Of a stretch of DNA of 64,000 nucleotides, positions 20,192 through 64,000 are shown piece by piece. The notes under the pieces are model-generated. The model saw only the letters and a list, made by a program, of their open reading frames with translations, was not told the DNA's origin and did no database searches. The translations under genes were made by a program, and so were the position numbers. Position 1 is the stretch's first letter. The number at the start of each line of letters is the position of its first letter. The DNA lies in IMG/VR virus record IMGVR_UViG_3300030104_003872, positions 1-64,000 of that record; one strand, 5' to 3'. The stretch is from a virus.

Positions 20192-22780
20192 TCACACAAC
20201 AAGCGACCCAAAAGTTATCACACTCTGAGTACCACTTACGACCAACGGACCCATATCAAGGCTTCCCTTACCTTCTGCTGAAAGCGTCCCTTGTGGTCCA
20301 GTAGGACCGGAAGGTCCGGCCGCTCCAGTCGCACCTGTGGGACCGGTAGGACCAGTTGCTCCTGTTGGTCCTGTGGGACCAGCAACACCTTGTATTCCTT
20401 GCGGACCTGCACTTCCAGTAGGTCCTAAATTACCTGTTGGACCAGAGGGTCCCGTTGGACCAGTAGGTCCAGTTCCTCCGGTTGCCCCAGTTGCTCCAGT
20501 TGCCCCTGCGGGTCCAGTGGCTCCAGAAGGACCAGAAGGTCCGCTAGAACCACTAGGTCCGGTATTACCTGTGGGTCCGCTAGGTCCGGTTGGACCATTA
20601 GCCCCCGTTGGACCGGCGGGTCCCGCAACTGTTGAATCTGCTCCGGCAGGACCGGTAGGACCAGATGGTCCCGAAGGTCCAGTAGGTCCCGAAGGTCCAG
20701 TAGGTCCTGTATTTCCAGTAGGACCAGCAGGTCCTGTTGGACCAGCATCTCCATCATCACCTTTCACTCCTGTTGCACCCGTTGGACCTGTCGCTCCTGT
20801 ATTTCCGGCAGGTCCACTAGGACCTGTGGGTCCTGTAGGTCCGGTTGCCCCAGTAGGTCCGGAAGCACCATCTGAACCATCCGCTCCTGCTGGACCTGTC
20901 GCTCCTGTACTTCCTGTGGGACCAGCGGGTCCGGTGGGACCTGTGGGTCCGTCATCACCCTTAGCACCTGTGACTCCTGTTGGACCAGTTAATCCAGTAG
21001 GACCAGCGGGTCCACTAGGTCCGGCAGGTCCAGTTGCACCATCCGACCCATCGTTACCGTCTGCTCCAGCAGGTCCAGTCGCCCCAGTCGCTCCAGTCGC
21101 TCCAGTTGGACCCGCTGCTCCGGCTGGTCCCGAAGGTCCTGAGGGTCCCGCAATACCTTGTAATCCTTGTGCTCCAGTAGCACCTGTGGGTCCTGTATCT
21201 CCTTTATCACCATCTGCTCCAGTCGGACCTGTTGGACCCGTAGCACCTGTCGCACCCGCAGGACCAGTAGGACCAGTAGGTCCAGTCGAACCATCTGCTC
21301 CGTCATTACCACTAGGTCCCGTTGCCCCTGTGGCTCCGGTCGCACCAGTAACCCCTGTGGGTCCAGCAGGACCAGTAGGTCCAGTAGAGCCATCTGCTCC
21401 AGCGGCTCCTGTTGCTCCTTGAGGACCTGTTGGTCCAACTGCACCTGTTGTTCCGGTACTTCCTGTGGCTCCTGTGGGACCTGCGGGTCCAGTTGGTCCG
21501 TCAGGACCTTCGGGTCCGGTGGGACCAGTTGGTCCTGCACTTCCAGATGGACCTTGTGCTCCCGCCGAACCATCTTGACCGGCTGGTCCTGTAGGACCGG
21601 TGGGTCCAGCAGGTCCTGTTGAGCCAGTTGGACCGCCACTTGTTACTGTCGCCCATTCTAAGCCTGTTGCGGTTGAATTAACACGAAGGACTTGATTAGA
21701 TGTACCTATTGTTGTTACACCTGTTCCACCTTGAAAAATAGGGGTTAGTTCCTGTTCTAAAGGTCCTGTCCCATCAACTGCTCGGTAAAGACCATCACTA
21801 ACCTGTACGAAGTTACCTATACTTCCATTTACTTTAGGTAAAGAGGAAACTTCTATTTCTGCTTTACTATTTCCATAAAGCATACAACCCGCATCTATTT
21901 CTAATTTATGCACGCTTAGGCGGGAATCACCCACCAACTTAGCAAAAAGCCCTACGTTTGCTTTGTAGGTTGCAGGAGTAGGATTATAGATATGAAGCCC
22001 ATACATCTTAGCAACAAACTGCCCCGAACTGCCTCCGTAAGCCCGACCAGAAGAATGATTATTGCTAGTTGGTACTGTTCTAAAACCACTTGCAGTTCCG
22101 GGTAGAGATAATGTAGCATATCCTAAGTTAAGTGTGTTTATAGAAACGGTAAAGGCATTAGCATCAACATTTGTTATTCTAATTTTGACTTCTCTATCTC
22201 TTCTTCCTGAGCCGGATGGGGATATACTAGAGAATGTTGACTGAACATCTAACTTTTCAATATCTATTGTTTCGTTATCTGAATAATATGGTTGCACATA
22301 CTGAGGTCTAAATGTTCCTGTATGAAAAATCACAATAGGATGAACTCCCCTATCCATGTGGAATATTCCACCGGAAAACTTAAAAGTAAGGTTAGAAATA
22401 TGTGAGCCGTATTCTAAGTTAGCCCCGTTCTTAACATATCTGCCGTCATAGGGGGGTGTTCCGCTAAAAGTTAAGGTTTTTCCGACCGGACACTTGACTA
22501 TACCATCTGCTATAAATCCATTTAATGCAACATTCACATCAAACTTTAAGTACCCTTGAAATCTTCTTTCTGTATTATCTGATGTATCAACATCCATTTC
22601 TATTTTACTTACGCTCGCAATATCCCAATCACAATTCTCTTCTGAATAATAACCAAAATGTGCGGTATCAGATGCTCCGGGAGCGGCGAGGGCATTTGCA
22701 CCTGTTGGAGAACCTGCGTGCCAATTAGATGCCGTAGAGGCATCGGTATCTGTATCTCCTATCCAATATAAATCAGCCAT
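20192..22780 (-). CDS. Collagen-like fibre protein 2
   Basis: ~380 aa N-terminal globular domain followed by ~450 aa nearly uninterrupted Gly-X-Y. Confidence 0.85.
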
Positions 22781-31637: not shown

Positions 31638-31876
31638 TAGGCGGAGATATATGGGCTAAATGCGTGATTTATGGCCTTCTATTATATACTAAGGCCGTAT
31701 TTCACCATTTGCTGATATCGGATATTGGTGTTGTCCTTCGGGGCTTCGGACGAAAGCATCTGAACATAACAGGCTAGAATTAGCCTTCCGAATGCTTTGC
31801 CGGACACAAGATGGAAGGCGAATGGAATAAACAAACCAATCGGGCAAATAATCAACATCTGAAAGGTGAAGAAGCA

Positions 31877-32314
31877 ATGGCTAAGGCTAAGGCTAAGGCA
31901 CTATATCAGATGGATGCGGAAGAAGCGATTGCTTCGTTCAATAGTACCCGTGCTGACAACAGTAAGGGATTGGGCAAAGCAATAGTGCATAAGCCCCGAA
32001 TGCGTAAGGCATCCGGCAGTCATGTTATGATTGTTGATTTGTCTAAACTGCCTAAGGGAAGCACGGTTGAACACCATCTAGGCTTGGCAACAAGTAAGGT
32101 GAATGGGAAACCTGCTAAATATGCTTGCGTGTGTCTAACACACAATAGAAGCGTACTATGCACAACACGCCATCAGGCAACCTTCGGGGCAGTCTTTACT
32201 GCCCTTAAGGACGCTAGGACACCGAAGCAACTGATTCAGTCTAAGGGATTTACCCTAACTGATGGAATCGGTTGGTGTGATGGTTGTGTGAAGGCTTCAT
32301 TAGCATCTGTCTGA
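31877..32314 (+). CDS. Small basic Cys/His protein, paralog family member 1
   Basis: Start MAKAKAK after AAAGGTGAA; CVCLTH...WCDGC; distant similarity to 33403, 34261 and 41112 proteins. Confidence 0.75.
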   Translation: MAKAKAKALYQMDAEEAIASFNSTRADNSKGLGKAIVHKPRMRKASGSHVMIVDLSKLPKGSTVEHHLGLATSKVNGKPAKYACVCLTHNRSVLCTTRHQATFGAVFTALKDARTPKQLIQSKGFTLTDGIGWCDGCVKASLASV

Positions 32315-32498
32315 AATGTGTCTTGCCACTATTAGGTGAAGTGGGCTTCCGTAATATGCTAGATATGTATGCGTCAATGAACAGTCAATCAGACTAACCA
32401 AACGATACCCAAGATTAGCACCTGTACAGGATGGATTTCAATGGCTATATCCCGCCGTTAAATCCTGTATAGTTTGAAGCCCCTTCCCACACGAAACC

Positions 32499-32651
32499 AT
32501 GATTTTGAAAAGGTATTTTATTGAATGGCGTGATGGAACAATAACCGAAATTAGCATTGATGAATTGAAGCGATTAGATGAATCAGGATTCCCGAAATCC
32601 ATGCTTAATTTCATGGAATATCGGGCGTTTAGGAAGTGGTTGAAGGATTAG
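32499..32651 (+). CDS. Small hypothetical protein (50 aa, not in ORF track)
   Basis: MILKRYFIEWRDGTITEISIDELKRLDESGFPKSMLNFMEYRAFRKWLKD*. Confidence 0.55.
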   Translation: MILKRYFIEWRDGTITEISIDELKRLDESGFPKSMLNFMEYRAFRKWLKD

Positions 32652-32700
32652 GCCGAAAGGCCACCTTCTTCCCTTTTTTTTGTGTTTTTTCAGATTTTTT
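32651..32700 (+). terminator. Hairpin plus long T-tracts
   Basis: GGCC-GAAA-GGCC followed by three runs of 6-8 T. Confidence 0.65.
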
Positions 32701-32738
32701 GAATCTACCGCATAAAAGATGGTTAAAGCCTTCGGTCC

Positions 32739-32835
32739 GCCCCTGTGAGAGAACAAAGGTCCGGAGAAAAAAGGTCAGGAGAAAAAGGTCTGGAGAAAAA
32801 GGTCACGCTGACAAAGGTCAGCCCCTGTGAGAGAA
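32739..32835. repeat. Tandem AAAGGTC(N)GGAGA repeats flanked by direct GCCCCTGTGAGAGAA copies
   Basis: AAAGGTC occurs five times in 32755-32819 at ~14-15 nt period; the 15-nt flank occurs at 32739 and 32821. Confidence 0.85.
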
Positions 32836-42376: not shown

Positions 42377-42943
42377 ATGAGCAAATCAGCCGAAGAAGAG
42401 TTAATAGAAGAGTGGAAAGAACCAGAGCAACCAATGGATTATCTGATTCGACAACAAGAGAATGCTATCACGCAGACCAAGTATCTATTCTACAAACTCT
42501 ATGATAAGAGTGACAAAGGATGGAGTGACGAGCAGAAAGAAGAGTGGGGTAATCATATCGACGAAAACGGTTTCCGCAAGTCGGAGTTATTCCAAGAAGT
42601 ACCTGCTCAACACAGATATGTGGTCGCTATACCAGAGACAGGCGAGTGGAAATCATTTAAGACTCGTTCCGAGGTAACACAAGACCGGCAAGGTGGAGCA
42701 ATGTACCCCTATGCTAAGTGGTCTAAGCACGAGTCAGCCCGAATGGAGGCCTATGGTGCTATGAAACTCATGAGTTTAGCGTGTTCTAAGGTCTTACCTG
42801 AGAACTGTGATGACGAGCAAGCGTATTTACGACCTTCCGACATTGAAAGAGTTGCACTTATCCTATTAGAGATTGACGCAGAGCGAAGGGAATTATCAGA
42901 GTATTACGATGAGTTAGCCCAAGAATTAGAGGTTTCAGCATGA
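42377..42943 (+). CDS. Hypothetical protein
   Basis: 188 aa; coupled to the helicase gene (ATGA overlap). Confidence 0.65.
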   Translation: MSKSAEEELIEEWKEPEQPMDYLIRQQENAITQTKYLFYKLYDKSDKGWSDEQKEEWGNHIDENGFRKSELFQEVPAQHRYVVAIPETGEWKSFKTRSEVTQDRQGGAMYPYAKWSKHESARMEAYGAMKLMSLACSKVLPENCDDEQAYLRPSDIERVALILLEIDAERRELSEYYDELAQELEVSA

Positions 42944-44571
42944 GTATTGAAGAAGAGAACCTTCCAGTTAGAGTTTCAGAAAGACTCAAGGAATTGAGTG
43001 ACACGAAAAGAAGTGAAATGAGCCTATATCTCTGGCAAGAAGGAGCAATACAGGCTTGGTCAGGCAACGGAGTTGCACGTGACCCTATTTCTGATAAACC
43101 TCTAGATGGTGATAAAGAGTTCTTTGGTATTGTCTCAGCCGTGACCGGTTCTGGAAAGACCTATGTTGCATCAGAGTGTGCGTGGGTCTGGTTACAGAAG
43201 AACCCAACCGGTAGAGTAACCGTATTGGTCCCGTCAAGAGCATTACAGAATAAGTGGAGAAAAGACATGGCCGGAGCGTTCCCCCACATGAGAATAGGTA
43301 TGATGGGTGGTGGTAGAAGAGATTTCCGACAAATATCAATAGTGACCATGAATACGGCCGCTAAAGGTCTTCCAGAGACAGACGGTGAGCATCTTATCAT
43401 TGTAGATGAGTGCCATAATATCGGTTCAGAGTTTCGACAATATGCTATTCGTAATAATTCTCATACTGCGGTATTAGGTCTTAGTGCAACTCCAGCGAGG
43501 GAAGATAGCGGTTTGACCGTTGTATCACACCTATGCGGTCCGGTCGTTTATCAATACAAGTATGACCAAGCACTCAACGACGATGTTATTATCCCGTTTA
43601 GAGTTAGGGCGGTTGCAGTTCCTCTAACCCATATGGAGCGTTCAGAATATGAAGAGATTACAAATCAGATTAGGAAAATCTCTTTCATCCTCCGTAAGCG
43701 ATATGGAGCAGGTACAAATTGGTTTGCACTCAAACAAGACCCATCAGACCCCGATACTGCTTTGACCACGTTCAAAGACCTATGTATGAAGCGTAAGAGA
43801 CTTGTAAATGAGTGTCATCTAAGATTCGAGTGCGTTGATGATATATTGAGGTTACACGAGAACAGTAAGACCATGATATTTCACGAGCGTATCAAACAAA
43901 TAGAGTGGATGCACGATAAATACCGAGGCCTATGTCCAGAGACAATACCAAATTGCGAGGACACATGGGAAGAAGTCGCTTTGACCCCACCGGACTGTTC
44001 CGAGTGGTTAGGCATGAATCCAGAGTTATATCACGGTGATATGACCAAAGGGGAAAATGATAGAGCGTTTGAGGCATTTGCCGAGGGCGATGCTAGTATT
44101 CTCTTGTCATGTAAGGCTCTTCGTGAAGGAGTTGATGTACCCTCGTGCGACTTAGGTATTATGGTGAGTGGTACTAATTCCGCTCGTGCTAGAGTTCAGA
44201 CACTTGGTCGTTGCTTGAGACGTGGAGAAGGTAAAACAGGAGCGATTGTATATTTACTCTATGTCCCAAATACGACTGATGCGAAAGGACTCGCTAATCT
44301 CAAATATGGTGGAAAACTACCCGACGGTACTATCGAATGGTGGAGATACACCCCCAACAAAGGTCTAGTTAAGTATGGTGAGGAAGAGCAACCCGAAATA
44401 CCTAAGAGGAAACCAAAAGCCGAGAAGAAGAAACATATATGTGACTCGTGTCATAAGGTCTTTCATACGGAGTCAGCATCGTTGTCAGAGAACCACCATT
44501 GCTATCCTCGATTAACCAAGACAGGTCGAAAGCCTATTGACCTTTGGGGTGATATGATTGGTCGAAAGTGA
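42940..44571 (+). CDS. Superfamily 2 helicase (XPB/Rad25-like DExH)
   Basis: Q motif (LYLWQ), TGSGKT, DECH, SAT, EGVDVP and QTLGRCLR. Confidence 0.9.
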   Translation: MSIEEENLPVRVSERLKELSDTKRSEMSLYLWQEGAIQAWSGNGVARDPISDKPLDGDKEFFGIVSAVTGSGKTYVASECAWVWLQKNPTGRVTVLVPSRALQNKWRKDMAGAFPHMRIGMMGGGRRDFRQISIVTMNTAAKGLPETDGEHLIIVDECHNIGSEFRQYAIRNNSHTAVLGLSATPAREDSGLTVVSHLCGPVVYQYKYDQALNDDVIIPFRVRAVAVPLTHMERSEYEEITNQIRKISFILRKRYGAGTNWFALKQDPSDPDTALTTFKDLCMKRKRLVNECHLRFECVDDILRLHENSKTMIFHERIKQIEWMHDKYRGLCPETIPNCEDTWEEVALTPPDCSEWLGMNPELYHGDMTKGENDRAFEAFAEGDASILLSCKALREGVDVPSCDLGIMVSGTNSARARVQTLGRCLRRGEGKTGAIVYLLYVPNTTDAKGLANLKYGGKLPDGTIEWWRYTPNKGLVKYGEEEQPEIPKRKPKAEKKKHICDSCHKVFHTESASLSENHHCYPRLTKTGRKPIDLWGDMIGRK

Positions 44572-44801: not shown

Positions 44802-46034
44802 ATGGCGAAAGACGGAGGCTTCGGAAGAAGCATGAGCAAGGAAAAGCGTAAAGAGTTTGAGCGTCAACTTGCTGATGAGTTCATTGAGAAAATAAAAAGT
44901 GGCGATGTCGGTGCTTGGAGTTCAGGTTGGACCAACTTAGGAGGCAATACTATGCCTCATAATACAAAAGGTCGCCCATATAGAGGTATAAACACAATAA
45001 TTCTCTGGCTTAGAGGTTCAGATTATAACTCTAATACATGGGGTACTTATCACTCTTGGAAAGAGGTTGCGAGGAAACACGCAATAAAAGAGGGTAAGTT
45101 TGAGTTAAAAATCGGTAGAGATGGAAAACCATACAAGCATACGACTGAGTGGTATGGAGTAAAGCAAGGAGAAAGCGGTACAAGCATTATTCTCTGGAAA
45201 CCACTCACATACAAGAACGAGAAAACCAATAAAAAGACAGGTGAGATAGAAGAGTCTATCGGTATGACCATGTTAATGCGAGTATTTACAGTATTCAATC
45301 GTGACCAGACAGGATTACCTGAGATTATTACAGAAACAGAGTTAGAAGAAGCAGAAGAGTTCAACAGTAGAGAAAAACAATTAGAAAACTGCCTCAATTG
45401 GTACATTGAGAACCCAAATCGTAAGGTGGTCAAGACTGGTGAGATGCTAGTACATCCTCATCCGAAGGCAGGTGAGAAACATACAGGTGAAGACCCTATA
45501 TGGGTCGTAAAAGATGGTGATATTATTCTCAAACACGGCGGAGATAGAGCGTTCTATACATCTAGCAGAGATAGGATAGCACTTCCTCTTCGTGAGCAAT
45601 TCAAAGAAAATGCGAGATACCTATCTACTAAAGGGCATGAGATTATCCATAGTACAGGTCACCCACTTCGACTTAATCGTGCTCTTGGTAATAGATTCGG
45701 GAGCGAAGATTATGCTAAGGAGGAATTGATTGCCGAGTTCGGTACTGCCTTTCTCATAGGCTCATTCGGCATACAGGGAGAACTTCGTAATGTTGAGTAT
45801 ATCAATAATTGGGCTTCGGTCTTGAGTAAAGAACCTAGATTCCTCATTACTGCGGCTCAAAGAGCACAAAAAGCAGTTAATTATGTACTCGAACCTTGGG
45901 TAGAACACGAGGCATGGCGTGACCAAGAAATAAATGACTTAAGAGAATATCTTGAGGGCAAAGAAATACAAATTACTCCTATGGGTCTTAACAGATTACA
46001 CGGAGATTTATCAGTTATGGAGGAAGAAGAATGA
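44802..46034 (+). CDS. ardC: ArdC-like antirestriction protein (DUF1738 ssDNA-binding + zincin-like domain)
   Basis: YRGIN.IIL, WGTY..W, VFNRDQT, AFY....DRIALP...F, HEIIHSTGH..RLNR, YAKEELIAE. Confidence 0.85.
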   Translation: MAKDGGFGRSMSKEKRKEFERQLADEFIEKIKSGDVGAWSSGWTNLGGNTMPHNTKGRPYRGINTIILWLRGSDYNSNTWGTYHSWKEVARKHAIKEGKFELKIGRDGKPYKHTTEWYGVKQGESGTSIILWKPLTYKNEKTNKKTGEIEESIGMTMLMRVFTVFNRDQTGLPEIITETELEEAEEFNSREKQLENCLNWYIENPNRKVVKTGEMLVHPHPKAGEKHTGEDPIWVVKDGDIILKHGGDRAFYTSSRDRIALPLREQFKENARYLSTKGHEIIHSTGHPLRLNRALGNRFGSEDYAKEELIAEFGTAFLIGSFGIQGELRNVEYINNWASVLSKEPRFLITAAQRAQKAVNYVLEPWVEHEAWRDQEINDLREYLEGKEIQITPMGLNRLHGDLSVMEEEE

Positions 46035-50475: not shown

Positions 50476-50973
50476 ATGAACATATTTATCCTAGATGAAG
50501 ACCCAATAATGTCTGCAAAGTTTTACTGCGACAAGCACATACCTAAGATGGTTGTTGAGTTATACCAACAACTAGGTAGTGCAGTTATCCGACACGGTGC
50601 AACGCCCGACATGATGCCACTTACTAAAAAAGGTACGCCCCTACGCGGAGGTTACCACAACCACCCTTGTACCCGTTGGGTAGGAGATTCACGGGCTAAC
50701 TTTCTATGGGCTTCTTATCACGCCGCTATGCTCTGCGAAGAATATACAAAGCGATTCGACAAAACACATTTCTGCGAACATGGGATAGAAAAATTATACG
50801 AGTTACACAAACTTATTCCCGATGGCGAATTGACACCGTTTGCTCAGGCTATGCCCGATGAGTACCGTGATGAAGATGCGGTGGTAGCATATCGCAACTA
50901 CTATATGTACGACAAGTCAAGATTTGCACAATGGAATCGTGGTCGTGACGCACCTTATTGGTGGGTAGTTTAA
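50476..50973 (+). CDS. Pyrimidine-dimer DNA glycosylase/endonuclease V-like protein
   Basis: MNIFILD..P...A...CDKH..KM, NHPCT.W, EY..RF.K.H, AMPDEY, AYRNYY, P.WW. Confidence 0.8.
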   Translation: MNIFILDEDPIMSAKFYCDKHIPKMVVELYQQLGSAVIRHGATPDMMPLTKKGTPLRGGYHNHPCTRWVGDSRANFLWASYHAAMLCEEYTKRFDKTHFCEHGIEKLYELHKLIPDGELTPFAQAMPDEYRDEDAVVAYRNYYMYDKSRFAQWNRGRDAPYWWVV

Positions 50974-54466: not shown

Positions 54467-54675
54467 AATGTTGTAAATGGCGACATTCCAAACACGTTAT
54501 AGAAAATATTAGGTCAGGTGAAATGAGATGCAAGATATGTATTACACGACTTCTGATGATATGCAAGGCTTGTAAAGGAGATGGTAAATTGAAACATAAA
54601 GAAGGAGTTGAATTATGTTCCGCTTGTGCTGGTCATAGAGTTATACCACAACAACCTGTGAAGGAGATGATATAA
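54436..54675 (+). CDS. Multi-CxxC Zn-finger protein
   Basis: Four CxxC pairs including CKACKGDG and CSACAG. Confidence 0.6.
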   Translation: MAVQWRGYCIECCKWRHSKHVIENIRSGEMRCKICITRLLMICKACKGDGKLKHKEGVELCSACAGHRVIPQQPVKEMI

Positions 54676-55340
54676 TGGGAGTAATAATTTATGCGGGTGA
54701 TGATAAGGATTTCAAGAACGGAGACCATATAGTAATGTATGGTGAAATGACTTCTCCCCCTACTGCACCTAACACAACATATATTCTTCATTGTGAATCA
54801 TTCCCCCTATCTATGGCTAAAGAATGGGCTAATTTAGTAACATATAGGCTAGTTGTGATACCTAGAAAGGGTATTAGGGGCATTCGTGAAGGGGATAATA
54901 TTCTAATCCACAAATCGGCTAAAACGGCTAAAAATAACTATAATTCACCAATCAATGCTATGATGAAGTGGTCAGACCGCAACAGGGCATGGAAGGCTAT
55001 GAAACCTGTCCCATTTGCTTTAGCAGAGGCATTTCATAAAGTAAATAGACCGAATGGTATAGAAGAGCAAAGGATAATCAGCAAAGCCCGCTATCAGATG
55101 GAAGAAGAATATGCAAAGGCGGCTCTTGTATTCGGAACAGAAGCGATTCACAGTCATGTCTCATGGCCTAAGAAGAAAGCAGACGAAAATGATACAATCC
55201 CCTTTGGGTTCAGGTCTACTGATGTGTATGCTGATATGATAGTACAACACGCCCCCGAAGTACGAAATAAACTTAGAGCGATTGACCAAGCACCTTCTAG
55301 TATCAAGAAAACAAAGGAGTCATTGTTAGAATGGCTTTGA
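54675..55340 (+). CDS. Hypothetical replication-associated protein with C-terminal PIP-like motif
   Basis: Ends KKTKESLLEWL; lies near RFC and PCNA genes. Confidence 0.5.
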   Translation: MGVIIYAGDDKDFKNGDHIVMYGEMTSPPTAPNTTYILHCESFPLSMAKEWANLVTYRLVVIPRKGIRGIREGDNILIHKSAKTAKNNYNSPINAMMKWSDRNRAWKAMKPVPFALAEAFHKVNRPNGIEEQRIISKARYQMEEEYAKAALVFGTEAIHSHVSWPKKKADENDTIPFGFRSTDVYADMIVQHAPEVRNKLRAIDQAPSSIKKTKESLLEWL

Positions 55341-56091: not shown

Positions 56092-56280
56092 ATGTCTGTA
56101 CGTCCCGTAACTATGTCAGTACCTCAAAACGAAGAACTCAACTGTTATTTCTGTAATCTGAAATTAAATAATGAAGAAATAATATTTTACAGAGTCTGTA
56201 TGAATAATAAGTGGGGTACAGGTAGTGTATGTGAGATGTGTTGGCGTGTAGCAGAAGAAGTAAGGGGATGGTACTCGTGA
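56092..56280 (+). CDS. Small Zn-finger protein
   Basis: CYFC...CEMC; leaderless start after TTATAA at ~56064. Confidence 0.5.
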   Translation: MSVRPVTMSVPQNEELNCYFCNLKLNNEEIIFYRVCMNNKWGTGSVCEMCWRVAEEVRGWYS

Positions 56281-57179
56281 AAGTAATTTGGGCTGAAAAG
56301 TATCGACCTAAGATTTTGGATGAAGTATTATCACAGGATTCGGTAGTATCTGAAATGCGAGCGATTGTTAGCGGGGATGCACCCATGCAACATTTCTTAT
56401 TCCACAGTCCTGAGCCGGGTAGTGGTAAAACAACTATGGCGAGGGTTATGGCTGATGAATTAGGTTATCAACTACATGAGTTTAATGCTTCCACTAAGAA
56501 ACAAAGAGGAATAGATTTTGTCGAAGATGATATTGCCCCTATGTCTAGGATTGGTCAGTTTGAAACTATATTCCTTCTTGACGAGGCAGATAGAATTACA
56601 CCGACTGCACAAGACGCATTGAAAGGTGTTATTGAGAACGCACAGGGATATTTCATTCTAACCTGCAACGACTTGAACAAAGTATCTCCTTGGCTCAAAT
56701 CTAGGTGTCAAGTTAGGACCTTCAAACCTATACCCGATGACTTAGTAATGGAGCGTCTAAAACATATATGTGTTCAAGAAGCGGTAGAGATGACCGAAGA
56801 TGATTTGTTAATAATTATTAAGAAACATGGTGGTGATATGAGAAACGCTATTGGTGCATTACAGGCGGCCTCTTATCTATCCCCCATAGATAGACAACAA
56901 TTTATTGCATCCATAAGCACTCCGACCATAGATGCAGGTTCGGTTTTGACTATTTGCTTCAAAATGGGTAATGTTCCCGAAGCGGTCAAGATATTGAGCC
57001 AAGCACCTGCACGTGAGGCTATTCATCAAGTATTCCTTAAAGCAATAGAGGCAAACATAACAGACCATGAAAAGAAGATGTTGGTTGTTGAAGCATCCAT
57101 TCAAGCACGCAGAGACCTAATAAATGGTGTTCCCGAAGTGTATGTTATTTGGGAGTTTTGCCGATTTATAAGCCAATAA
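56238..57179 (+). CDS. rfcS: Replication factor C small subunit (clamp loader)
   Basis: WAEKYRP, PGSGKTT, EFNAS..RGID, LDEAD, AQDAL, SRC and GDMR motifs. Confidence 0.92.
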   Translation: MLACSRRSKGMVLVKVIWAEKYRPKILDEVLSQDSVVSEMRAIVSGDAPMQHFLFHSPEPGSGKTTMARVMADELGYQLHEFNASTKKQRGIDFVEDDIAPMSRIGQFETIFLLDEADRITPTAQDALKGVIENAQGYFILTCNDLNKVSPWLKSRCQVRTFKPIPDDLVMERLKHICVQEAVEMTEDDLLIIIKKHGGDMRNAIGALQAASYLSPIDRQQFIASISTPTIDAGSVLTICFKMGNVPEAVKILSQAPAREAIHQVFLKAIEANITDHEKKMLVVEASIQARRDLINGVPEVYVIWEFCRFISQ

Positions 57180-57238: not shown

Positions 57239-58486
57239 ATGACCGATATTAATACAGAACAAATAGTAAAAGACCTTGCAAGCAACTTAGGTGTTGCTGA
57301 GGATAGGTTAAGACAGAAGATGAGTGAGGTGCTTGCAGAAAACGGAGCATCTTGGGCTAATGCAGGTAAAGACGAAACGACTTGCACTATCCTTTCAGCC
57401 CGCGTTGCGGGTCGCCAACTAAAAATGATTGGTGAAAGACTGAAAAAGAGTGGACTAGAACAATTCGAGGGAATGTTCATTCGTGTACCACCTTACAAGG
57501 ATTGGGCTCAGATTGCTTACAGAAAGGCAGAACGCGAGTTGTCAGCAAGAGGTAACGTAAGTGACCCTGCAACACAGGCACAACTTAGAAATGGTGCTTT
57601 AGTATATTACGAGGCTAGTGGAACAGGATATACCCGATATGCAAATGCCGGTCTAATGAACAAAACAGGTTTGAATGATGAGATTAGCGAAGCAACAGTT
57701 GATTCTCTTCCAAAGAATCATCACGAGTTACCTAACGGAGATGCTTTCTATCTGATTTGGAATAACACAACACCGACTTTCCCAAGCGGTGATGCTAACT
57801 TCAAATACGGAGCACCACGCCCCGCATCTGAAAAGGAGCGAACCTGCGTATTTTTGGGGAGAAAGGTTGGTTCAACTAGTGAGCCAGCATTAATTAATGT
57901 TAGAGCAAACGGTAAGACTGCTGATACTCAGCACGCAACATTCCTACCCGGAACAATCGGACTTAGACCCGGACGAGATGGGAAAGTTGCTTATGCTAAA
58001 GAACTAAGCGACCTTGTACCTAACGATGAAGTGGCGGGAATATTCTCATCACCACCATTCGCTATCGGTGAAGCGGGTCCAGAAGGTATTGTACCGGATA
58101 TGCTAGGCGGTCTTTACCCTAACGGAGGTATTCTGCCTTCATTCGCAACACTAGAACAATACCACACCGACCACAAAGATGATTCAGATTGGTGGGACCA
58201 GTGGGTAGGTATCGTTGGTGAAGTGGTACATATAGACCCGCGTGAGCGTGGTGGATATACAGTAACCCTCGGGGATATTGACATTACAAGTGTTGCACCC
58301 GGTCAGGATTTGGTTATTCCAAAGGCACAAGAGCACCTAGTTAATTTCGGTATCGGTTCGCAAATACTAATTGTCGGACAGACATACAAATCTAGGGATG
58401 ATGAAATGAGATTTACAACACATGGTTGGTGGTGCGTCGATTCAGTTGAGGCAGTATCGGTTGATGCAGAATCTTGGGAGGACTAA
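57239..58486 (+). CDS. RPA-like OB-fold ssDNA-binding protein
   Basis: C-terminal OB pattern (GIVGEVVHID...VTLGD...FGIGSQILIVGQT), acidic tail, replication context. Confidence 0.55.
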   Translation: MTDINTEQIVKDLASNLGVAEDRLRQKMSEVLAENGASWANAGKDETTCTILSARVAGRQLKMIGERLKKSGLEQFEGMFIRVPPYKDWAQIAYRKAERELSARGNVSDPATQAQLRNGALVYYEASGTGYTRYANAGLMNKTGLNDEISEATVDSLPKNHHELPNGDAFYLIWNNTTPTFPSGDANFKYGAPRPASEKERTCVFLGRKVGSTSEPALINVRANGKTADTQHATFLPGTIGLRPGRDGKVAYAKELSDLVPNDEVAGIFSSPPFAIGEAGPEGIVPDMLGGLYPNGGILPSFATLEQYHTDHKDDSDWWDQWVGIVGEVVHIDPRERGGYTVTLGDIDITSVAPGQDLVIPKAQEHLVNFGIGSQILIVGQTYKSRDDEMRFTTHGWWCVDSVEAVSVDAESWED

Positions 58487-59433
58487 GTATGGCATGGGCT
58501 CAGAATACCAAGCCGAAGGCGTCGACCAAACCTGCATACACGGTTGACCATTATAGGGATTTATTCAATAAGAATGCCGACCGGAAATTGGGGGCAACCC
58601 CTGTCCGTATGGCTCTTGTTGGTAAAGAGAATACTGCTAAGACAGGACTCGCATTATCCCTATCAAGAACACCGGAAGAGGTTAAAGAAGGTAAAAAAGT
58701 TATTATCTTTGACTTCGACAATTCAGCAGAAGCAACCGTAAGGTTTGTTTATCCTAACGACCCTAATGTAATAATATTGAAACTGTTTGACGAGATGGAT
58801 GATTCTATCTTTGAAGAGGATGGTGTAACAGTATTGTGGCATGGTCTAGTAAAGAAAGTAAAGGCATTCGTGACCATAGCAGGGGATTTAGTCAACGAGG
58901 GTAATGTTGCTTCGATTATATTCGATGGCGGTAGTACCTTTTCCAAGTGGTGCGAGTTTAGTATGCGTGAATCACTATTAGAAAGAGGTGTAACAGAACA
59001 CGAAGGCGATTCATTCAATCAGAAAGAGTGGCAGGAGAGAAACAGACTTTTCCGTGATACACTATATCGAGTACAGGCTTTACCTGTTGATAGAGTATTC
59101 TTTACCTTCCATCTGAAAGACCACAAACAATATCTAGGTGATGGTGGAGGCAAAAAGGTTCTCATGAAAGTTGGTGAAAAGCCCGACTGGATTGACGGTA
59201 CTCAAAGAAATATGAGTCAACAGATATTCCTAGCGAGATACACCAAGAAAGGAGACGACGCGGCAGGGGTCAAATCTGATAAAACTCTTAAAGAAGGCGA
59301 GTTTGTTGTCCGTGCAACTGTTGAGGAAATGAAAGGGACAGGAAGTGAGTTTGTGGGAACAACTCACGATGTTCTCTTAATCAAGAATAACAAAGTAACG
59401 TGGAACGGTCTACCTGACATGGGGTTGATATGA
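58474..59433 (+). CDS. P-loop ATPase, Sak4/AAA_24-like recombinase
   Basis: GKENTAKT, IFDFD, IIFDG, FTFH; next to the SSB gene. Confidence 0.65.
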   Translation: MGGLSMAWAQNTKPKASTKPAYTVDHYRDLFNKNADRKLGATPVRMALVGKENTAKTGLALSLSRTPEEVKEGKKVIIFDFDNSAEATVRFVYPNDPNVIILKLFDEMDDSIFEEDGVTVLWHGLVKKVKAFVTIAGDLVNEGNVASIIFDGGSTFSKWCEFSMRESLLERGVTEHEGDSFNQKEWQERNRLFRDTLYRVQALPVDRVFFTFHLKDHKQYLGDGGGKKVLMKVGEKPDWIDGTQRNMSQQIFLARYTKKGDDAAGVKSDKTLKEGEFVVRATVEEMKGTGSEFVGTTHDVLLIKNNKVTWNGLPDMGLI

Positions 59434-59632: not shown

Positions 59633-60460
59633 ATGTTAGTCAAGGCAAGCAACATGAAAAAGTTACTAGAAGTAACTGCGAGAAAACAATTTGTAAATGG
59701 AAAACCTCAACAACAGGTAATAGGTTGTGTATTAAGAGGAACTCAGATGGATGAAGTAAGCACAACGAGTTTAGTTCGTGATGGTAAAACATCTATCGCA
59801 CAGTTCTCAACTGTATGCGACTGGAAAGATGATGAACAGGCTATTGTTATCCCCGACATTGATAGAACACTAGGAGTTCTTTCAGCACACAACGGAGATA
59901 TAACTATGACGCAAGATGGTGGCTCATTAAGAATAAAGAGCAAAGGCAAGCAAACAACCATTGTTGCAGAGCCCGGTAGTTTAGCATTTCCTCACACACA
60001 AGAAACTATTGCTGAGTGGGAAAGTAAATCACTAACCCTTTCTGAGCAAGTCAATGAAGATGCAGGTTCTTACAAAATGCGAGATGGTTCTGACAGAAAA
60101 GCATTCTTTATGGCTGAGACTTCTGCGTCTATACTTCACGAGGCTTTGAAGGCTGATAACATGAACTCGCAGAAACTTAACCAATACACATTCAGATATG
60201 ACGGTCAAAATGTTCTATATGTTCAGACTGGTACTGACCTAAAAGGACAGACAGAAACAATACTGAACGACGATTGTCAGCAACAGGTTGAATCTTTCGA
60301 GGCAACTTATGAAGGTGGGCTTGAGCAAATACTATCACACTATGACGGTATGGTCAAACTATACTTCTTAGACTTCCGACCAGAAGGACAGGGTATCAGA
60401 CTAATTGTTAGTTTTGATAACGGAGATTGGGTTTTCCAAGCGTGCGTTCTAAAGAGGTGA
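59633..60460 (+). CDS. PCNA-like sliding clamp
   Basis: 275 aa two-domain alpha/beta pattern; co-located with RFC and PolB. Confidence 0.6.
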   Translation: MLVKASNMKKLLEVTARKQFVNGKPQQQVIGCVLRGTQMDEVSTTSLVRDGKTSIAQFSTVCDWKDDEQAIVIPDIDRTLGVLSAHNGDITMTQDGGSLRIKSKGKQTTIVAEPGSLAFPHTQETIAEWESKSLTLSEQVNEDAGSYKMRDGSDRKAFFMAETSASILHEALKADNMNSQKLNQYTFRYDGQNVLYVQTGTDLKGQTETILNDDCQQQVESFEATYEGGLEQILSHYDGMVKLYFLDFRPEGQGIRLIVSFDNGDWVFQACVLKR

Positions 60461-60465
60461 TTTGA

Positions 60466-60663
60466 ATGATAAGAAAAATTCTCCGGACTACCTTTAATAC
60501 TTCTTACGGAACGACGCATATTAACGTGTCTGATATTTCCGCTATCACAGAAACTAGAGATAGATTTGAAATCCATATGACTTCCGGTACTATATTTACT
60601 ACCGTTGATAAAGAAGGACCATATGTGTTTGTTACTAAATGGATGGAGGGGCGAATTGAATGA
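60466..60663 (+). CDS. Small hypothetical protein
   Basis: HINVSDISAITE....IHMTSG; GAGGTGA RBS. Confidence 0.55.
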   Translation: MIRKILRTTFNTSYGTTHINVSDISAITETRDRFEIHMTSGTIFTTVDKEGPYVFVTKWMEGRIE

Positions 60664-61838
60664 GTATCGAAAGACATATCATTAGAACCCCATTAAGGGA
60701 GCGTTATGGTGCTCCACCTTTCAGCATCCTAGATGCACGACAAGGTTATTGGCAAGACAGAAAGCGTTGGTGGACTCGTAAAGGCATCCGGTCAGAATTA
60801 GGAAGGGGTGAGGCACTTATCGCTATGTCTAAATCGAACATGAAGTATATGTTTGGTAAAAAAGAGTACGATGTTGACCAGTTACAGAAAGAGGGAATCC
60901 TTCTAACTGATGAAGAAGTTGAAGTTGGTGGAGATTCTAAAGGTAACGCTAAGACATTCGCTATTGGAGATAAAGCAACGTGGAATGAAACTAAGAGCGA
61001 TACTAGAGCAATTCCAGGAGGAGGGACAGGTAAAAATAGTGTTTGGCTTCATAAGAAAGAAGATGGGAGCATGGGTGCTTCCCTAAAGGAAGAAGATGCT
61101 TTCAAGAATAGAGCAACAGGTACTTCTATATTCGACCCAGTCCTAACAGAATTAATGTACGATTGGTTTTGTCCGAAAGACGGTAGTATTCTTGACCCTT
61201 TCTGTGGTGGTTCTGTTAGAGGGATTGTCGCGGCTCATGGTAATCATCAGTATGCGGGTATGGAATTACGTTCCGACCAAGTACAAGCAAATAGGATTCA
61301 AGGATTAGAGATACTAGGCGATACTGATTATCCTATGCCTAATTGGGTTGTTGGAGATGCACTAGACATACAAGATAAGATAGGTGGTCAATGGGACATG
61401 GTATTTTCATGCCCCCCTTATGGTGACCTTGAAGTCTATTCAGAAGATGATAGGGATTTATCCACTATGGAACACCACGAGTTTTTAGATTCATATAGAA
61501 ATATTATTCAGCGTTCTGTTGATATGCTCAAGGATAATAGATTTGCAGTATTTGTTGTTGGGGATTTTAGAAACGAAAAAGGATTCTATCGTAACTTCGT
61601 TAGCGACACTATTGACGCATTCCAATCAGCAGGTGCTACCTTATACAATGAATGTATCTTAATTACAGTTGCAGGTAGCCTTCCTATAAGAGTACATAAG
61701 CAATTCGCTAACAATAGAAAGTTAGGTAAAACTCATCAGAATGTTTTAATCTTCTTCAAGGGTGACCCCAAGACTATACAGGATGAGTTCCATTATCTTG
61801 ATGTTGAAGATAAGACAGAGGACGTGGAATGGCTTTAG
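60660..61838 (+). CDS. Amino (N6A/N4C) DNA methyltransferase
   Basis: PPFSILDAR.GYWQ.RK..W, TSIFDPVL, LDPFCGG (motif I), SCPPY (motif IV). Confidence 0.85.
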   Translation: MSIERHIIRTPLRERYGAPPFSILDARQGYWQDRKRWWTRKGIRSELGRGEALIAMSKSNMKYMFGKKEYDVDQLQKEGILLTDEEVEVGGDSKGNAKTFAIGDKATWNETKSDTRAIPGGGTGKNSVWLHKKEDGSMGASLKEEDAFKNRATGTSIFDPVLTELMYDWFCPKDGSILDPFCGGSVRGIVAAHGNHQYAGMELRSDQVQANRIQGLEILGDTDYPMPNWVVGDALDIQDKIGGQWDMVFSCPPYGDLEVYSEDDRDLSTMEHHEFLDSYRNIIQRSVDMLKDNRFAVFVVGDFRNEKGFYRNFVSDTIDAFQSAGATLYNECILITVAGSLPIRVHKQFANNRKLGKTHQNVLIFFKGDPKTIQDEFHYLDVEDKTEDVEWL

Positions 61839-62791
61839 ACTTTAGCGAGTTTGTACCATTAACATTTGATAATTACAGAGCCTTTAGGAATGGATTGTTC
61901 CGTGCCTACCGTCATCCACGATATTATCAATCACCTATGAGGCTTCTTCACCAACCCCATGTATTCAAGTTAGGGTATGTTGATGATGACTTGGTCGTTC
62001 TAAAAGACAGGCAAATAATGGGAACACAGGTTCTCTATTCTATATTGCCCCCGAATAATTGGGAGGTAATACATAAACTAACAGAAGGAGGTGTCCCTTG
62101 TTTTCTAAGTGACGAAGATGTGTTTAATGCTCCTGATAAGCATGGGGTTGTTCCTGTAAAGGACAACATAGAGTATGTGTATCATCTATCAGCATTTTCG
62201 GATAGATATGGGGTGAATAAGAACCAACTTAGAAGGCCATGTAACAAGGCTGAGTCGCTTTGTGAGTCGGGTGAAATAACTATTGAAGCACATTGGGGTA
62301 ATGTTCCCTATGAAACGCTTAATTCATGCAATGTTTTGACCGCTAAGTGGTTAGCCCAAAGGGATAAGAAAGCATGGAAACCTAACTTCTTTATTGACTC
62401 TTTCAATAAGTATTCTAAACTAGAACACGCTCTTCTTTTGACTGTTATGCAGGGGGATAGATGTTTAGGCTACCACCTATCACATAGGGTATGTAATGGT
62501 TTAATTTACGATGTGGCCTGTAAGGATTATGAGAACACACCTATTAAGAATATGACTCCTGTCCTTCTTCACTATGCTTCTAAAGCGTGGGCGGAGAAGT
62601 TCCCTTCACAGTTAGAATACACAAGGGTTAATAGAGGAGCGGCAGTTAGGGGTGCGTCTAGCCGGATAGCCAAAGACAAACTAAGACCGCTATTAAAGAA
62701 TCAGATATACAAGACAGTTCCCCCTATCAAGATGACTAAAGAATTAAAATCATCATACTTTGAAGTAAAACAGAATGTCGAATGGTTATAA
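61829..62791 (+). CDS. DUF2156/MprF C-terminal-like (aminoacyl-tRNA-dependent GNAT-fold) transferase
   Basis: EYVY....S..YG..K.QLRR..NK and VNRG....A..R.AK..LRP match the family pattern (DYIY..L.GKK...RN..N; INRE.D.G..GLR.AK.SY.P); no TM domain. Confidence 0.6.
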   Translation: MALDFSEFVPLTFDNYRAFRNGLFRAYRHPRYYQSPMRLLHQPHVFKLGYVDDDLVVLKDRQIMGTQVLYSILPPNNWEVIHKLTEGGVPCFLSDEDVFNAPDKHGVVPVKDNIEYVYHLSAFSDRYGVNKNQLRRPCNKAESLCESGEITIEAHWGNVPYETLNSCNVLTAKWLAQRDKKAWKPNFFIDSFNKYSKLEHALLLTVMQGDRCLGYHLSHRVCNGLIYDVACKDYENTPIKNMTPVLLHYASKAWAEKFPSQLEYTRVNRGAAVRGASSRIAKDKLRPLLKNQIYKTVPPIKMTKELKSSYFEVKQNVEWL

Positions 62792-62859
62792 TACGAAGCC
62801 TTATAAGTAACCGCCTCTTCGGATATAGTAGAAAGCCCATAGGCAGAAGGCCATAACAA

Positions 62860-63144
62860 ATGAAGTACAGTTTAGTAATAGAAGATGAAGATAGCACAAG
62901 AACAATTCCGATTGACCCTAATGAACGATTAGTAGTTGATAATGTATGGTACTCACTTGAACTAGGTCAAGCAAAAACAGATAGACCATATAGAAGTGAA
63001 GAATGGCTAACTGCCGTATATCATGGTGAAGGTAAGACTCTTAAAGAAATAGGAGATATGTGTGGCGTAAGTCCGATGACCATAAATCAATGGTTAGTAA
63101 AGCACGGAATCACTAGCAGACCTCGTGGGAGGAGAAGAGAGTGA
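62860..63144 (+). CDS. HTH DNA-binding protein
   Basis: EEWL...Y..EGKTLKEIGDMCGVSPMTINQWLVKHGI..R. Confidence 0.8.
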   Translation: MKYSLVIEDEDSTRTIPIDPNERLVVDNVWYSLELGQAKTDRPYRSEEWLTAVYHGEGKTLKEIGDMCGVSPMTINQWLVKHGITSRPRGRRRE

Positions 63145-63644
63145 ATGTTACTTTCTATCTTTGCGGACCGATACTTAGTGAAAATGAAAGATGGCGTTCA
63201 TTAGAGTGGCGTGAAATCGCTTTTGATATTCTCGATTCTAATGGCTTCAATGTTTTCAATCCTATGGTAAGTGAGGACTATGGGAATGTTCATTATGATG
63301 AGCAATTTAAGGAATTGATTGTTCCACGAGATAAACTAATGATAGACCGTTCAGATGTTATAATAGTGAATTGGATTCCTAAAGAAATGAGTATAGGGAC
63401 TTGCATGGAAGTCATGTATGCTCATCAGCAGGGGAAGAAGGTAATATGGTTCGCAGAAGACCAATCACTTGCTCTTGAACTCGAAGAAAACCCTTGGGTC
63501 ATAGCACACAACGATTGGGAGTTTGTTAGACCGTTTAGTTCCGATAACATAAGGGATATAGCAGAATGGTTTGGTTGCTTCAAAAAGACTAAGAGAATGG
63601 TCAAGTTTTTGAACAGTAACGAAAGGCCAAATGACTTTTGCTAA
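63141..63644 (+). CDS. Nucleoside 2-deoxyribosyltransferase-like protein
   Basis: FYLCGPI, WR, FNP, D..MIDRSDVII, SIGTCMEVMYA...GKKV. Confidence 0.85.
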   Translation: MNVTFYLCGPILSENERWRSLEWREIAFDILDSNGFNVFNPMVSEDYGNVHYDEQFKELIVPRDKLMIDRSDVIIVNWIPKEMSIGTCMEVMYAHQQGKKVIWFAEDQSLALELEENPWVIAHNDWEFVRPFSSDNIRDIAEWFGCFKKTKRMVKFLNSNERPNDFC

Positions 63645-63675: not shown

Positions 63676-64000
63676 ATGATAGTGGATGGCTTAGGTGGAA
63701 GAAGGGTTGCAGTCAGGTATCGTGACCCAGTTACACTTGACCGGAAGCAAGATATTATTAATGATATTTACCCATACGCATTTATTAGTGATGTTGATGC
63801 TGACCTTATTCCGGCAGTAAAGAAAGAAAGTGGATTCACTGGTCTGTATGGTGAAAATATTACCAAGATTACACTTGCTGACCCTTACGAAACTTCACAA
63901 CTAAAGAATACATTTTCTCAGACATGGGAATGTAATATCCCCTTCACTAACAGAGTACTTATTGACAATGGTAAGCATTATGATTTCTATAAGCATCGTG
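63676..64000 (+). CDS. polB: Family B DNA polymerase, N-terminus (partial; absent from ORF track)
   Basis: MIVDGLGGRRVAVRYRDP...YPYAF...GLYGE...TWECNIPFTNRVLID matches the PolB N-terminal domain; TTATAAG promoter ~25 nt upstream. Confidence 0.75.
   Translation, partial: MIVDGLGGRRVAVRYRDPVTLDRKQDIINDIYPYAFISDVDADLIPAVKKESGFTGLYGENITKITLADPYETSQLKNTFSQTWECNIPFTNRVLIDNGKHYDFYKHR

Follow-up and report, generated by a model that had tools for sequence, protein, structure and literature searches.

Why should a tailed virus encode, next to a DNA methylase gene and between the genes for its sliding clamp and its DNA polymerase, an apparent relative of the enzymes that take amino acids from charged tRNAs? 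The question is raised by IMG/VR record IMGVR_UViG_3300030104_003872, positions 1-64000 of which are here called the window. The record is the complete genome of a tailed virus (75,290 bp; CheckV completeness 100%), and the final 10 kb of the window form a densely packed replication operon with all genes on the plus strand. Two of these genes overlap and encode a DNA amino-methyltransferase-type enzyme (the methylase) and a DUF2156-like protein (the transferase), and a first-pass annotation of the sequence had proposed that the pair may install an aminoacyl or otherwise bulky DNA modification. Our reading is that the pair probably gives newly replicated viral DNA a mark that goes beyond methyl and has so far gone undescribed. 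That the two enzymes form one two-part DNA-modifying unit, working by the mechanism proposed below, has in our estimate a probability of about one half. The case is built from four observations, namely the fold of the transferase, its coupling to the methylase, a C-terminal tail shared by both enzymes, and a footprint in the restriction sites of the genome.

The AlphaFold model of the transferase, run with the family alignment (predicted local distance difference test, pLDDT, 90; pTM 0.87), is a tandem GNAT. Fold comparison by Foldseek and VIA-align gives 2HQY as the best match (Z 24.7, root-mean-square deviation 2.8 A over 275 residues), followed by L-PGS, MprF and A-PGS (Z 15-17, spanning transferase residues 4-303), FemX (14-15), Sbb17/Sba18 (14) and FemA (13.4); acyl-CoA-dependent tandem GNATs reach 11.4 at most, below all of the aminoacyl-tRNA-dependent matches just listed, and ATE1 is found at Z 10.8. 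Against the Pfam family LPG_synthase_C/DUF2156 (PF09924) the window protein reaches 24.3 bits where the cut-off asks for 27.5, and its relatives P0036, P0026 and P0027 exceed that cut-off. A profile of the family (A2), which numbers 20 close and about 35 distant relatives, finds DUF2156 members and no others in the PDB, with E-values of 1.6e-11 for 2HQY and 2.4e-5 for L-PGS. The protein has no membrane segment (the highest 19-residue Kyte-Doolittle window is 0.87) and an isoelectric point of 9.05. As modelled, the transferase is a DUF2156 tandem-GNAT protein with the fold of aminoacyl-tRNA transferases, which bears out the earlier description of a gene with DUF2156-like motifs and no membrane domain. 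A lipid-directed, MprF-like role was considered and rejected in view of the missing membrane segment, the replication operon, the polymerase-type tail and the insertion of the domain into methylases elsewhere.

The putative donor is an aminoacyl-tRNA. A basic helix runs between the two GNAT domains (131-146 in the model); G128, N130 and K131 are invariant in this region, and conservation of R135 and R136 reaches 90% or more. In profile alignments it coincides with the GKKxxxxR helix of 2HQY, L-PGS and MprF, and the equivalent basic helix binds the tRNA acceptor stem in tRNA-dependent transferases (PMC6103681, PMC8913301). Residues of both GNAT domains, R31, Y118, W174, N268, G270, K282 and P287, are retained down to 22% identity, and the N, G, K and P of the invariant block in the second domain (Table 1) recur in distant relatives and in 2HQY.

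A tandem GNAT might instead modify bases with acyl-CoA or another small donor, in the manner of Mom of phage Mu, a GNAT-fold enzyme that acts on adenine N6 to give N6-carbamoylmethyl-adenine. The GNAT superfamily is mostly CoA-dependent, tandem CoA-dependent members match the fold with Z 9-11, and no tRNA gene was found in the window; yet every match above Z 13 is either an aminoacyl-tRNA-dependent enzyme or 2HQY, the basic helix between the domains, which tRNA users typically have, has been kept, and the family profile finds DUF2156 proteins alone. We consider a Mom-like acyl transfer improbable. Less probable still, and in our judgement a marginal explanation, is that the transferase binds, senses or strips charged tRNA and thereby tunes the methylase or replication to the translational state of the host, leaving the DNA unmodified. 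The conserved tRNA-binding helix would suit such a role, and the acceptor cannot be identified from the sequence, the substrate specificity of DUF2156 proteins being unpredictable in this way (PMC8913301). The invariant residues in both GNAT domains, however, are enzyme-like even among the most divergent relatives, and the pyridoxal phosphate (PLP) and methyltransferase enzymes that keep the transferase company in other viruses favour a chemical product.

The coupling of the transferase to the methylase is seen first in the overlap of the two genes, which had been noticed at the outset and measures 10 nt. These nucleotides, ATGGCTTTAG, encode E-W-L-stop in the methylase frame and M-A-L in the transferase frame; all 13 related IMG/VR loci, the most distant at 47% identity, have the same overlap, and all 21 members of the transferase clade start with M-A-L because the overlap forces those residues. 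Such an arrangement points to translational coupling, and the two genes are probably translated together. Synteny among the 13 loci is in itself weak evidence, because they are collinear throughout.

An exhaustive search for transferase relatives among 1.8 billion cluster representatives returned three long, unrelated metagenomic proteins whose methylase halves are 55-61% identical to the window methylase. In P0026 (970 aa) and P0051 (1097 aa), the whole DUF2156-like domain lies between the half of the methylase that binds S-adenosylmethionine (SAM) and the half that carries its CPPY motif (hhalign E 6e-55 for the domain match in P0051). In P0045 (1306 aa), the same insertion point of the methylase is occupied by a PALP-type PLP enzyme, with a class I methyltransferase and a DUF2156-like domain N-terminal to it; PLP-inserted methylases are also present in the cultured phages Pam4 and Erythrobacter ZS04/R6L. 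In distant phage loci, the DUF2156-like gene lies at most three genes from an N6_N4 methylase, in some cases together with class I methyltransferase and PALP genes. One phage contig carries DnaB, a gene without assigned identity, the DUF2156-like gene, a class I methyltransferase and PALP, with the N6_N4 methylase two genes upstream; other orders are DUF2156-like, methylase, clamp loader, or methylase, a gene again without assigned identity, DUF2156-like. A word-index search of longer proteins, weak evidence in this respect, gave no further methylase fusions, and locus searches did not recover the contigs of P0045 and P0026. The linkage that the first-pass annotation wished to see surveyed is thus conserved in all 13 related loci and reappears as fusion or insertion in three unrelated proteins. 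Nesting of one enzyme in the catalytic domain of the other is strong evidence for a common substrate, and a DUF2156-like domain placed inside the methylase unites both active sites in a single chain.

The methylase itself matches the Pfam family N6_N4_Mtase (PF01555) with 39.8 bits (cut-off 26.7) in two permuted pieces, which upholds its annotation as an amino-methyltransferase. Motif I precedes motif IV; the former, ILDPFCGGSVRG, is kept in every compared member of the methylase subfamily, and the latter reads CPPY, with Cys at the position usually held by D, N or S in (D/N/S)-P-P-(Y/F/W). CPPY is a trait of the entire subfamily, including enzymes that stand alone in cultured phages (phiFL3A gp36, Listeria B054 and HCTV-2 gp11). 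The window methylase shares the post-ParB element with the ParB-methylase subfamily, but the ParB domain itself is missing. It is the sole DNA methylase among four families searched in the 75-kb genome, the C5, Dam/D12 and N6_Mtase families giving no match. In Croceibacter phage P2559S (L017:2356-3997), the gene of a stand-alone CPPY methylase overlaps one annotated as S-adenosylmethionine decarboxylase, which may hint at an unusual use of SAM by the subfamily.

The genome as a whole shows an extreme avoidance of restriction sites. GATC, expected 234 times, is absent; AGCT is found at 12 sites against 236 expected and GCGC at two against 90 expected, and CCATGG, CTATAG, ATGCAT, GTATAC, ACATGT and GGTACC do not occur at all; GATC is absent also from three related genomes that were fetched in full. 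The AGCT sites that survive lie without exception within GAGCT or AGCTC, 12 of 12 here and 17 of 17, 6 of 6 and 12 of 12 in the three relatives (47 of 47 in total), and both surviving GCGC sites read GCGCTC. With a chance of 0.33-0.46 per AGCT site of being flanked in this way, the combined P is about 1e-20 on the assumption that the sites are independent. The distribution of GAG and CTC is likewise uneven: positions 31644-32747 (1,103 bp) contain neither (about 27 expected, P about 4e-10), the following ~17 kb (32747-~49900) carry them at twice the expected density, and the rest of the genome lies at 0.5-0.9 of expectation. One relative (G002) has the same layout, with a 1,215-bp gap adjoining an enriched flank. 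A global GAG/CTC bias was rejected, the genome-wide ratio of observed to expected being 0.95 and the signal regional and contextual.

Every one of the 47 remaining AGCT sites thus has a GAGCT or AGCTC context. The simplest reading, and a likely one, is that a motif containing GAG/CTC bears a protective mark, and the methylase with its partner appears to be the only encoded candidate for it among the families searched. The first-pass annotation had called a link to GAG/CTC patterning conceivable but unsupported; the link now has circumstantial support, from the 47 sites and from the single methylase.

Two further observations belong to the same subject. A gene for an anti-restriction-type protein with ArdC-N and zincin (MPTase-PolyVal) parts lies inside the GAG/CTC-rich region (44802-46034), adjoined by a SNF2/ResIII helicase gene (42940-44571). 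In another relative (G003; L032-L034), 105 of 155 TCGA sites overlap GAG/CTC, a fraction of 0.68 compared with 0.37-0.49 in the other three genomes, and TCGA may be partly rescued there in a CTCGAG context.

The main rival explanation divides the two activities. The methylase would place plain N6-methyladenine or N4-methylcytosine (m6A/m4C) at a GAG-containing motif, while the transferase, tethered to the fork by the C-terminal tail that both enzymes carry, would aminoacylate a client other than DNA, such as a replisome or chromatin protein or a small molecule. A methyl group at GAG/CTC would suffice for the rescue of AGCT, the SAM-binding and catalytic motifs of the methylase appear intact, and members of its subfamily stand alone in cultured phages. 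L/F- and R-transferases aminoacylate the N-termini of proteins, and the fold matches of the window protein include ATE1, which transfers amino acids from tRNA to proteins. What such a division of labour leaves hard to explain is the presence of a DUF2156-like domain inside the methylase catalytic domain of two independent proteins, which would have to serve unrelated substrates; the repeated presence nearby of tailoring enzymes, PLP-dependent ones and class I methyltransferases, argues for a multi-step product, and the gene overlap has been kept throughout the clade. Plain methylation combined with another fork-associated target is in our view rather unlikely.

The joint DNA-modifying unit that we favour would also have to find its substrate, and here the C-termini of the two enzymes are informative. 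Four proteins of the genome end in E-W-L, namely PolB (A-V-E-W-L), the methylase and the transferase (both V-E-W-L) and g221, a basic, conserved 221-aa protein; among 194 open reading frames (ORFs), 0.015 such ends are expected by chance (P about 2e-9). The tail is retained in relatives of these proteins while the preceding residues drift, and in 13 homologues of g221 it is conserved as ...KKTKExhhEWL (...KKTKESLLEWL in the window). No match to g221 was found in Pfam, PHROGs, NCBIfam or a PDB profile search, and it is probably a further replisome client. The C-terminal peptide of a replicative polymerase is classically a clamp-binding element, and the canonical PCNA-interacting (PIP) box reads Q-x-x-(L/I/M)-x-x-(F/Y/W)-(F/Y/W/L). 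The E-W-L tail appears to be a variant motif held in common with PolB rather than a canonical PIP box. That it is shared suggests docking on one replisome hub; the best candidate, by analogy with the polymerase, is the viral clamp encoded upstream of the pair.

The clamp loader and clamp genes lie on one side of the region that holds the pair and a nucleoside 2-deoxyribosyltransferase (NDT)-like gene, and PolB lies on the other. The clamp gene has no match in Pfam, NCBIfam or PDB profile searches and is recognised by fold alone: the top Foldseek hits of its AlphaFold model (pLDDT 78) are all sliding clamps, including DnaN, Haloferax PCNA and 9-1-1, at a probability of 1.00 but with TM-scores of only 0.38-0.49. 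A predicted complex of the clamp with the last 40 residues of the transferase scored 0.01 (mark 0.32) and carries no weight either way. In phage modules (L014:2842-7687, L021:1574-3254), short tails of Gly and hydrophobic residues (GFGL, GLLY, GLIL, GLFFNG and GVLF) terminate the methylase, the DUF2156-like protein and the class I methyltransferase, and likewise about half of the distant DUF2156-like relatives, and these tails may be the bacterial-clamp counterpart of E-W-L.

The mechanism that we propose joins these elements. The E-W-L tail would dock both enzymes on the replisome hub, likely the clamp, and so direct their action to newly made DNA. The methylase part would recognise the sequence and flip a base at a GAG/CTC-containing motif, possibly GAGC/GCTC; the DUF2156-like part, holding a host aminoacyl-tRNA by its basic inter-domain helix, would add an amino-acid-derived group, either to the flipped base or to a group first installed by the methylase. 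With DNA as the acceptor and an aminoacyl or other bulky adduct as the product, the mark would block host restriction at sites overlapping the motif, which would account for the survival of AGCT as GAGCT or AGCTC alone. A replisome-tethered pair that writes an amino-acid mark at a GAG/CTC motif, in archaeal viruses and in phages, would be the first charged-tRNA-dependent DNA modification; in this full form the proposal is tentative, possible rather than probable. The known route through 5-hydroxymethyl-deoxyuridine (5-hmdU) was rejected: the complete 75-kb record has no match to PF00303, the thymidylate-synthase-family dUMP hydroxymethylase, and no PALP enzyme was found in it. A precedent exists in phages M6 and ViI, where amino acids carried by DNA bases are trimmed by PLP enzymes whose fold type is that of the PLP enzymes in the phage modules (PMC8989533).

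Several points weigh against this reading. The window transferase, taken alone, falls about 3 bits short of the PF09924 cut-off. The CPPY methylases that stand alone in cultured phages presumably work as plain methylases, so the subfamily can function without a DUF2156 partner. The hub would follow from the analogy with the polymerase alone, for the tails of the methylase (KTEDVEWL) and the transferase (VKQNVEWL) fit the PIP box at just its last two positions (W-L); that of g221 (KESLLEWL) comes nearer to it. The AGCT sites come from four genomes akin to one another and thus lack full independence, and a host enzyme that spares AGCT with a 5' G or a 3' C would mimic the pattern without any modification. 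GATC and many palindromes are fully avoided by the virus, and any mark would therefore be site-specific rather than a blanket protection. As for the chemistry, we know of no aminoacyl-tRNA-dependent DNA modification, and the exocyclic amines of bases are poor nucleophiles.

The genes around the pair (Table 1) agree in outline with their first description. The clamp (PCNA) and PolB do flank the pair, the clamp being recognised by structure; the methylase is separated from it by a 65-aa ORF. An NDT-like gene does lie downstream, but it does not follow the transferase directly, a gene for a small helix-turn-helix (HTH) protein intervening. The NDT-like protein retains the catalytic Glu when aligned with Lactobacillus NDT (PDB 1F8X). 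Its gene accompanies the methylase/transferase pair only in the collinear virus family and not in distant modules, and it was rejected as a member of the pathway because its linkage is confined in this way.

Table 1. Features of the replication operon and of the methylase/transferase pair, in order of position (all coordinates refer to the window, except that the PolB gene runs beyond its end).
Feature	Coordinates	Strand	Basis or remark
221-aa conserved protein (g221)	54675-55340	+	ends E-W-L; fold unassigned
Clamp loader	56238-57179	+	replication operon
415-aa protein, no assigned identity	57239-58486	+	replication operon
AAA_24/RadA-like ATPase	58474-59433	+	replication operon
Sliding clamp (275 aa, PCNA-like, two-domain)	59633-60460	+	AlphaFold fold match only
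65-aa ORF	60466-60663	+	separates clamp gene from methylase
DNA amino-methyltransferase-type enzyme (methylase), 392 aa	60660-61838	+	Pfam N6_N4_Mtase; phrog_498, phrog_12517
Methylase motif I (SAM-binding loop), ILDPFCGGSVRG	61188-61223	+	residues 177-188; Pfam profile positions 176-217
Methylase motif IV, FSCPPY	61404-61421	+	start of Pfam profile; CPPY = residues 251-254
10-nt gene overlap, ATGGCTTTAG	61829-61838	+	sequence read directly
DUF2156-like tandem-GNAT protein (transferase), 320 aa, soluble	61829-62791	+	AlphaFold, Foldseek, VIA-align, profile against PDB
Basic inter-domain helix of transferase	62210-62266	+	residues 128-146; K131, R135, R136, K140
Block N-R-G-A-A-V-R-G..S..A-K.K..P, GNAT II of transferase	62630-62689	+	invariant across 21 sequences
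Small HTH protein, 94 aa	62860-63144	+	Sigma70_r4, HTH_23; DNA-binding parts of PHROG HNH proteins
NDT-like protein	63141-63644	+	PF05014, E 1.8e-11
Family-B DNA polymerase (PolB)	63676-65877 (63676-64000 in the window)	+	PF00136, 115.9 bits

Terminase, portal and tail tube genes are found elsewhere in the genome. The closest cultured relatives of PolB, at 23% identity, belong to haloarchaeal tailed viruses, and relatives of the transferase occur in marine metagenomes, those of Tara among them, and in one metagenome-assembled genome labelled Euryarchaeota. We infer a magrovirus-like archaeal tailed virus, because the gene set fits the published description of magroviruses (PMC5434244). Searches of 50,697 cultured-phage records with tblastn gave no match to the transferase or to its distant relative P0033, and a pattern scan of GTDB species genomes found no clade member. 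The replication/repair block also contains a Pyr_excise-like (pyrimidine-dimer DNA glycosylase) gene (50476-50973), which fits a virus of sunlit surface water. A high-GC structural region encodes an 862-aa protein with long collagen triple-helix repeats (20192-22780; Pfam Collagen, E 4e-64), probably a fibre.

In the literature searched, no paper links either DUF2156 or PF09924 with viruses or with the modification of DNA, and no description of the methylase/DUF2156 module was found there. The contribution of the present locus is an archaeal-virus member that is reduced to two genes, carries a polymerase-type tail and comes with a genome-encoded hint of its target motif. If the proposal is true, the donors for DNA modification, so far SAM, sugars and free amino acids, would come to include charged tRNA, and nucleic acids would be a new field for a protein family otherwise met only in the chemistry of lipids, cell walls and antibiotics. 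Experiments are unusually easy to devise: the module has no more than two genes, the virus's own restriction-site footprint suggests a candidate motif (GAG/CTC, GAGC), and AluI, which cuts at AGCT, offers a direct read-out, AGCT within GAGCTC being protected if the proposal holds. Sister architectures are at hand in the cultured phages Pam4 and Erythrobacter R6L/ZS04. The module bears on restriction evasion by abundant marine archaeal viruses and on the recruitment of modification enzymes to the fork by a polymerase-like tail, and it could yield new tools for sequence-specific DNA labelling.

Among known systems, the methylase has its nearest counterparts in the ParB-linked CPPY phage methylases, such as Enterococcus phiFL3A gp36 and halovirus HCTV-2 gp11, and in the PLP-inserted forms of the same subfamily, Pseudanabaena phage Pam4 gp70 and Erythrobacter phage ZS04 gp7. 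Identity to these enzymes is 40-57% over the catalytic part, and the PPF element, motif I, CPPY and a GKTHQNVL block are common to all. The ParB-linked enzymes mostly stand alone close to terminase genes and carry a ParB domain, whereas the window methylase lacks ParB, is overlapped by the DUF2156-like gene and ends in the tail of the polymerase.

The closest structural counterpart of the transferase, 2HQY, is a stand-alone DUF2156 protein of Bacteroides thetaiotaomicron, likewise soluble, of about 300 aa and with two GNAT domains, and the basic inter-domain helix and a G-L-x-x-A-K....P block are common to both. Unlike the viral protein, 2HQY is bacterial, has no assigned function and has no known methylase partner, replisome-type tail or viral context; identity is about 14%. 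The C-terminal domain of MprF and aminoacyl-phosphatidylglycerol synthases and the FemX/FemA enzymes share with the viral transferase the tandem GNAT (Z 13-17) and the positively charged acceptor-stem helix (PMC6103681). Their acceptors are membrane lipids or the precursors of peptidoglycan, and MprF includes a flippase of 14 helices, in contrast with a viral protein that has no membrane segment, belongs to a replication operon and is inserted into a DNA methylase in other viruses.

Two systems come closest to the proposed role. Mom, likened here by description only, is a base modifier of the GNAT superfamily that acts after replication and gives phage DNA a sequence-biased protection, but it consists of one small domain of a type other than DUF2156, with no methylase partner and no known use of tRNA. 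In the thymidine hypermodification pathways of phages M6, ViI and PaMx11, which comprise a 5-hmdU kinase, an amino acid:DNA transferase and a PLP decarboxylase, amino acids are attached to the bases of polymeric DNA and then trimmed (PMC8989533, PMC5889632). PLP enzymes of the tryptophan-synthase-beta type occur both in those pathways and in the phage relatives of the present module. There, however, free amino acids are placed on phosphorylated 5-hydroxymethyl-uracil, and the viral transferase described here has a different fold.

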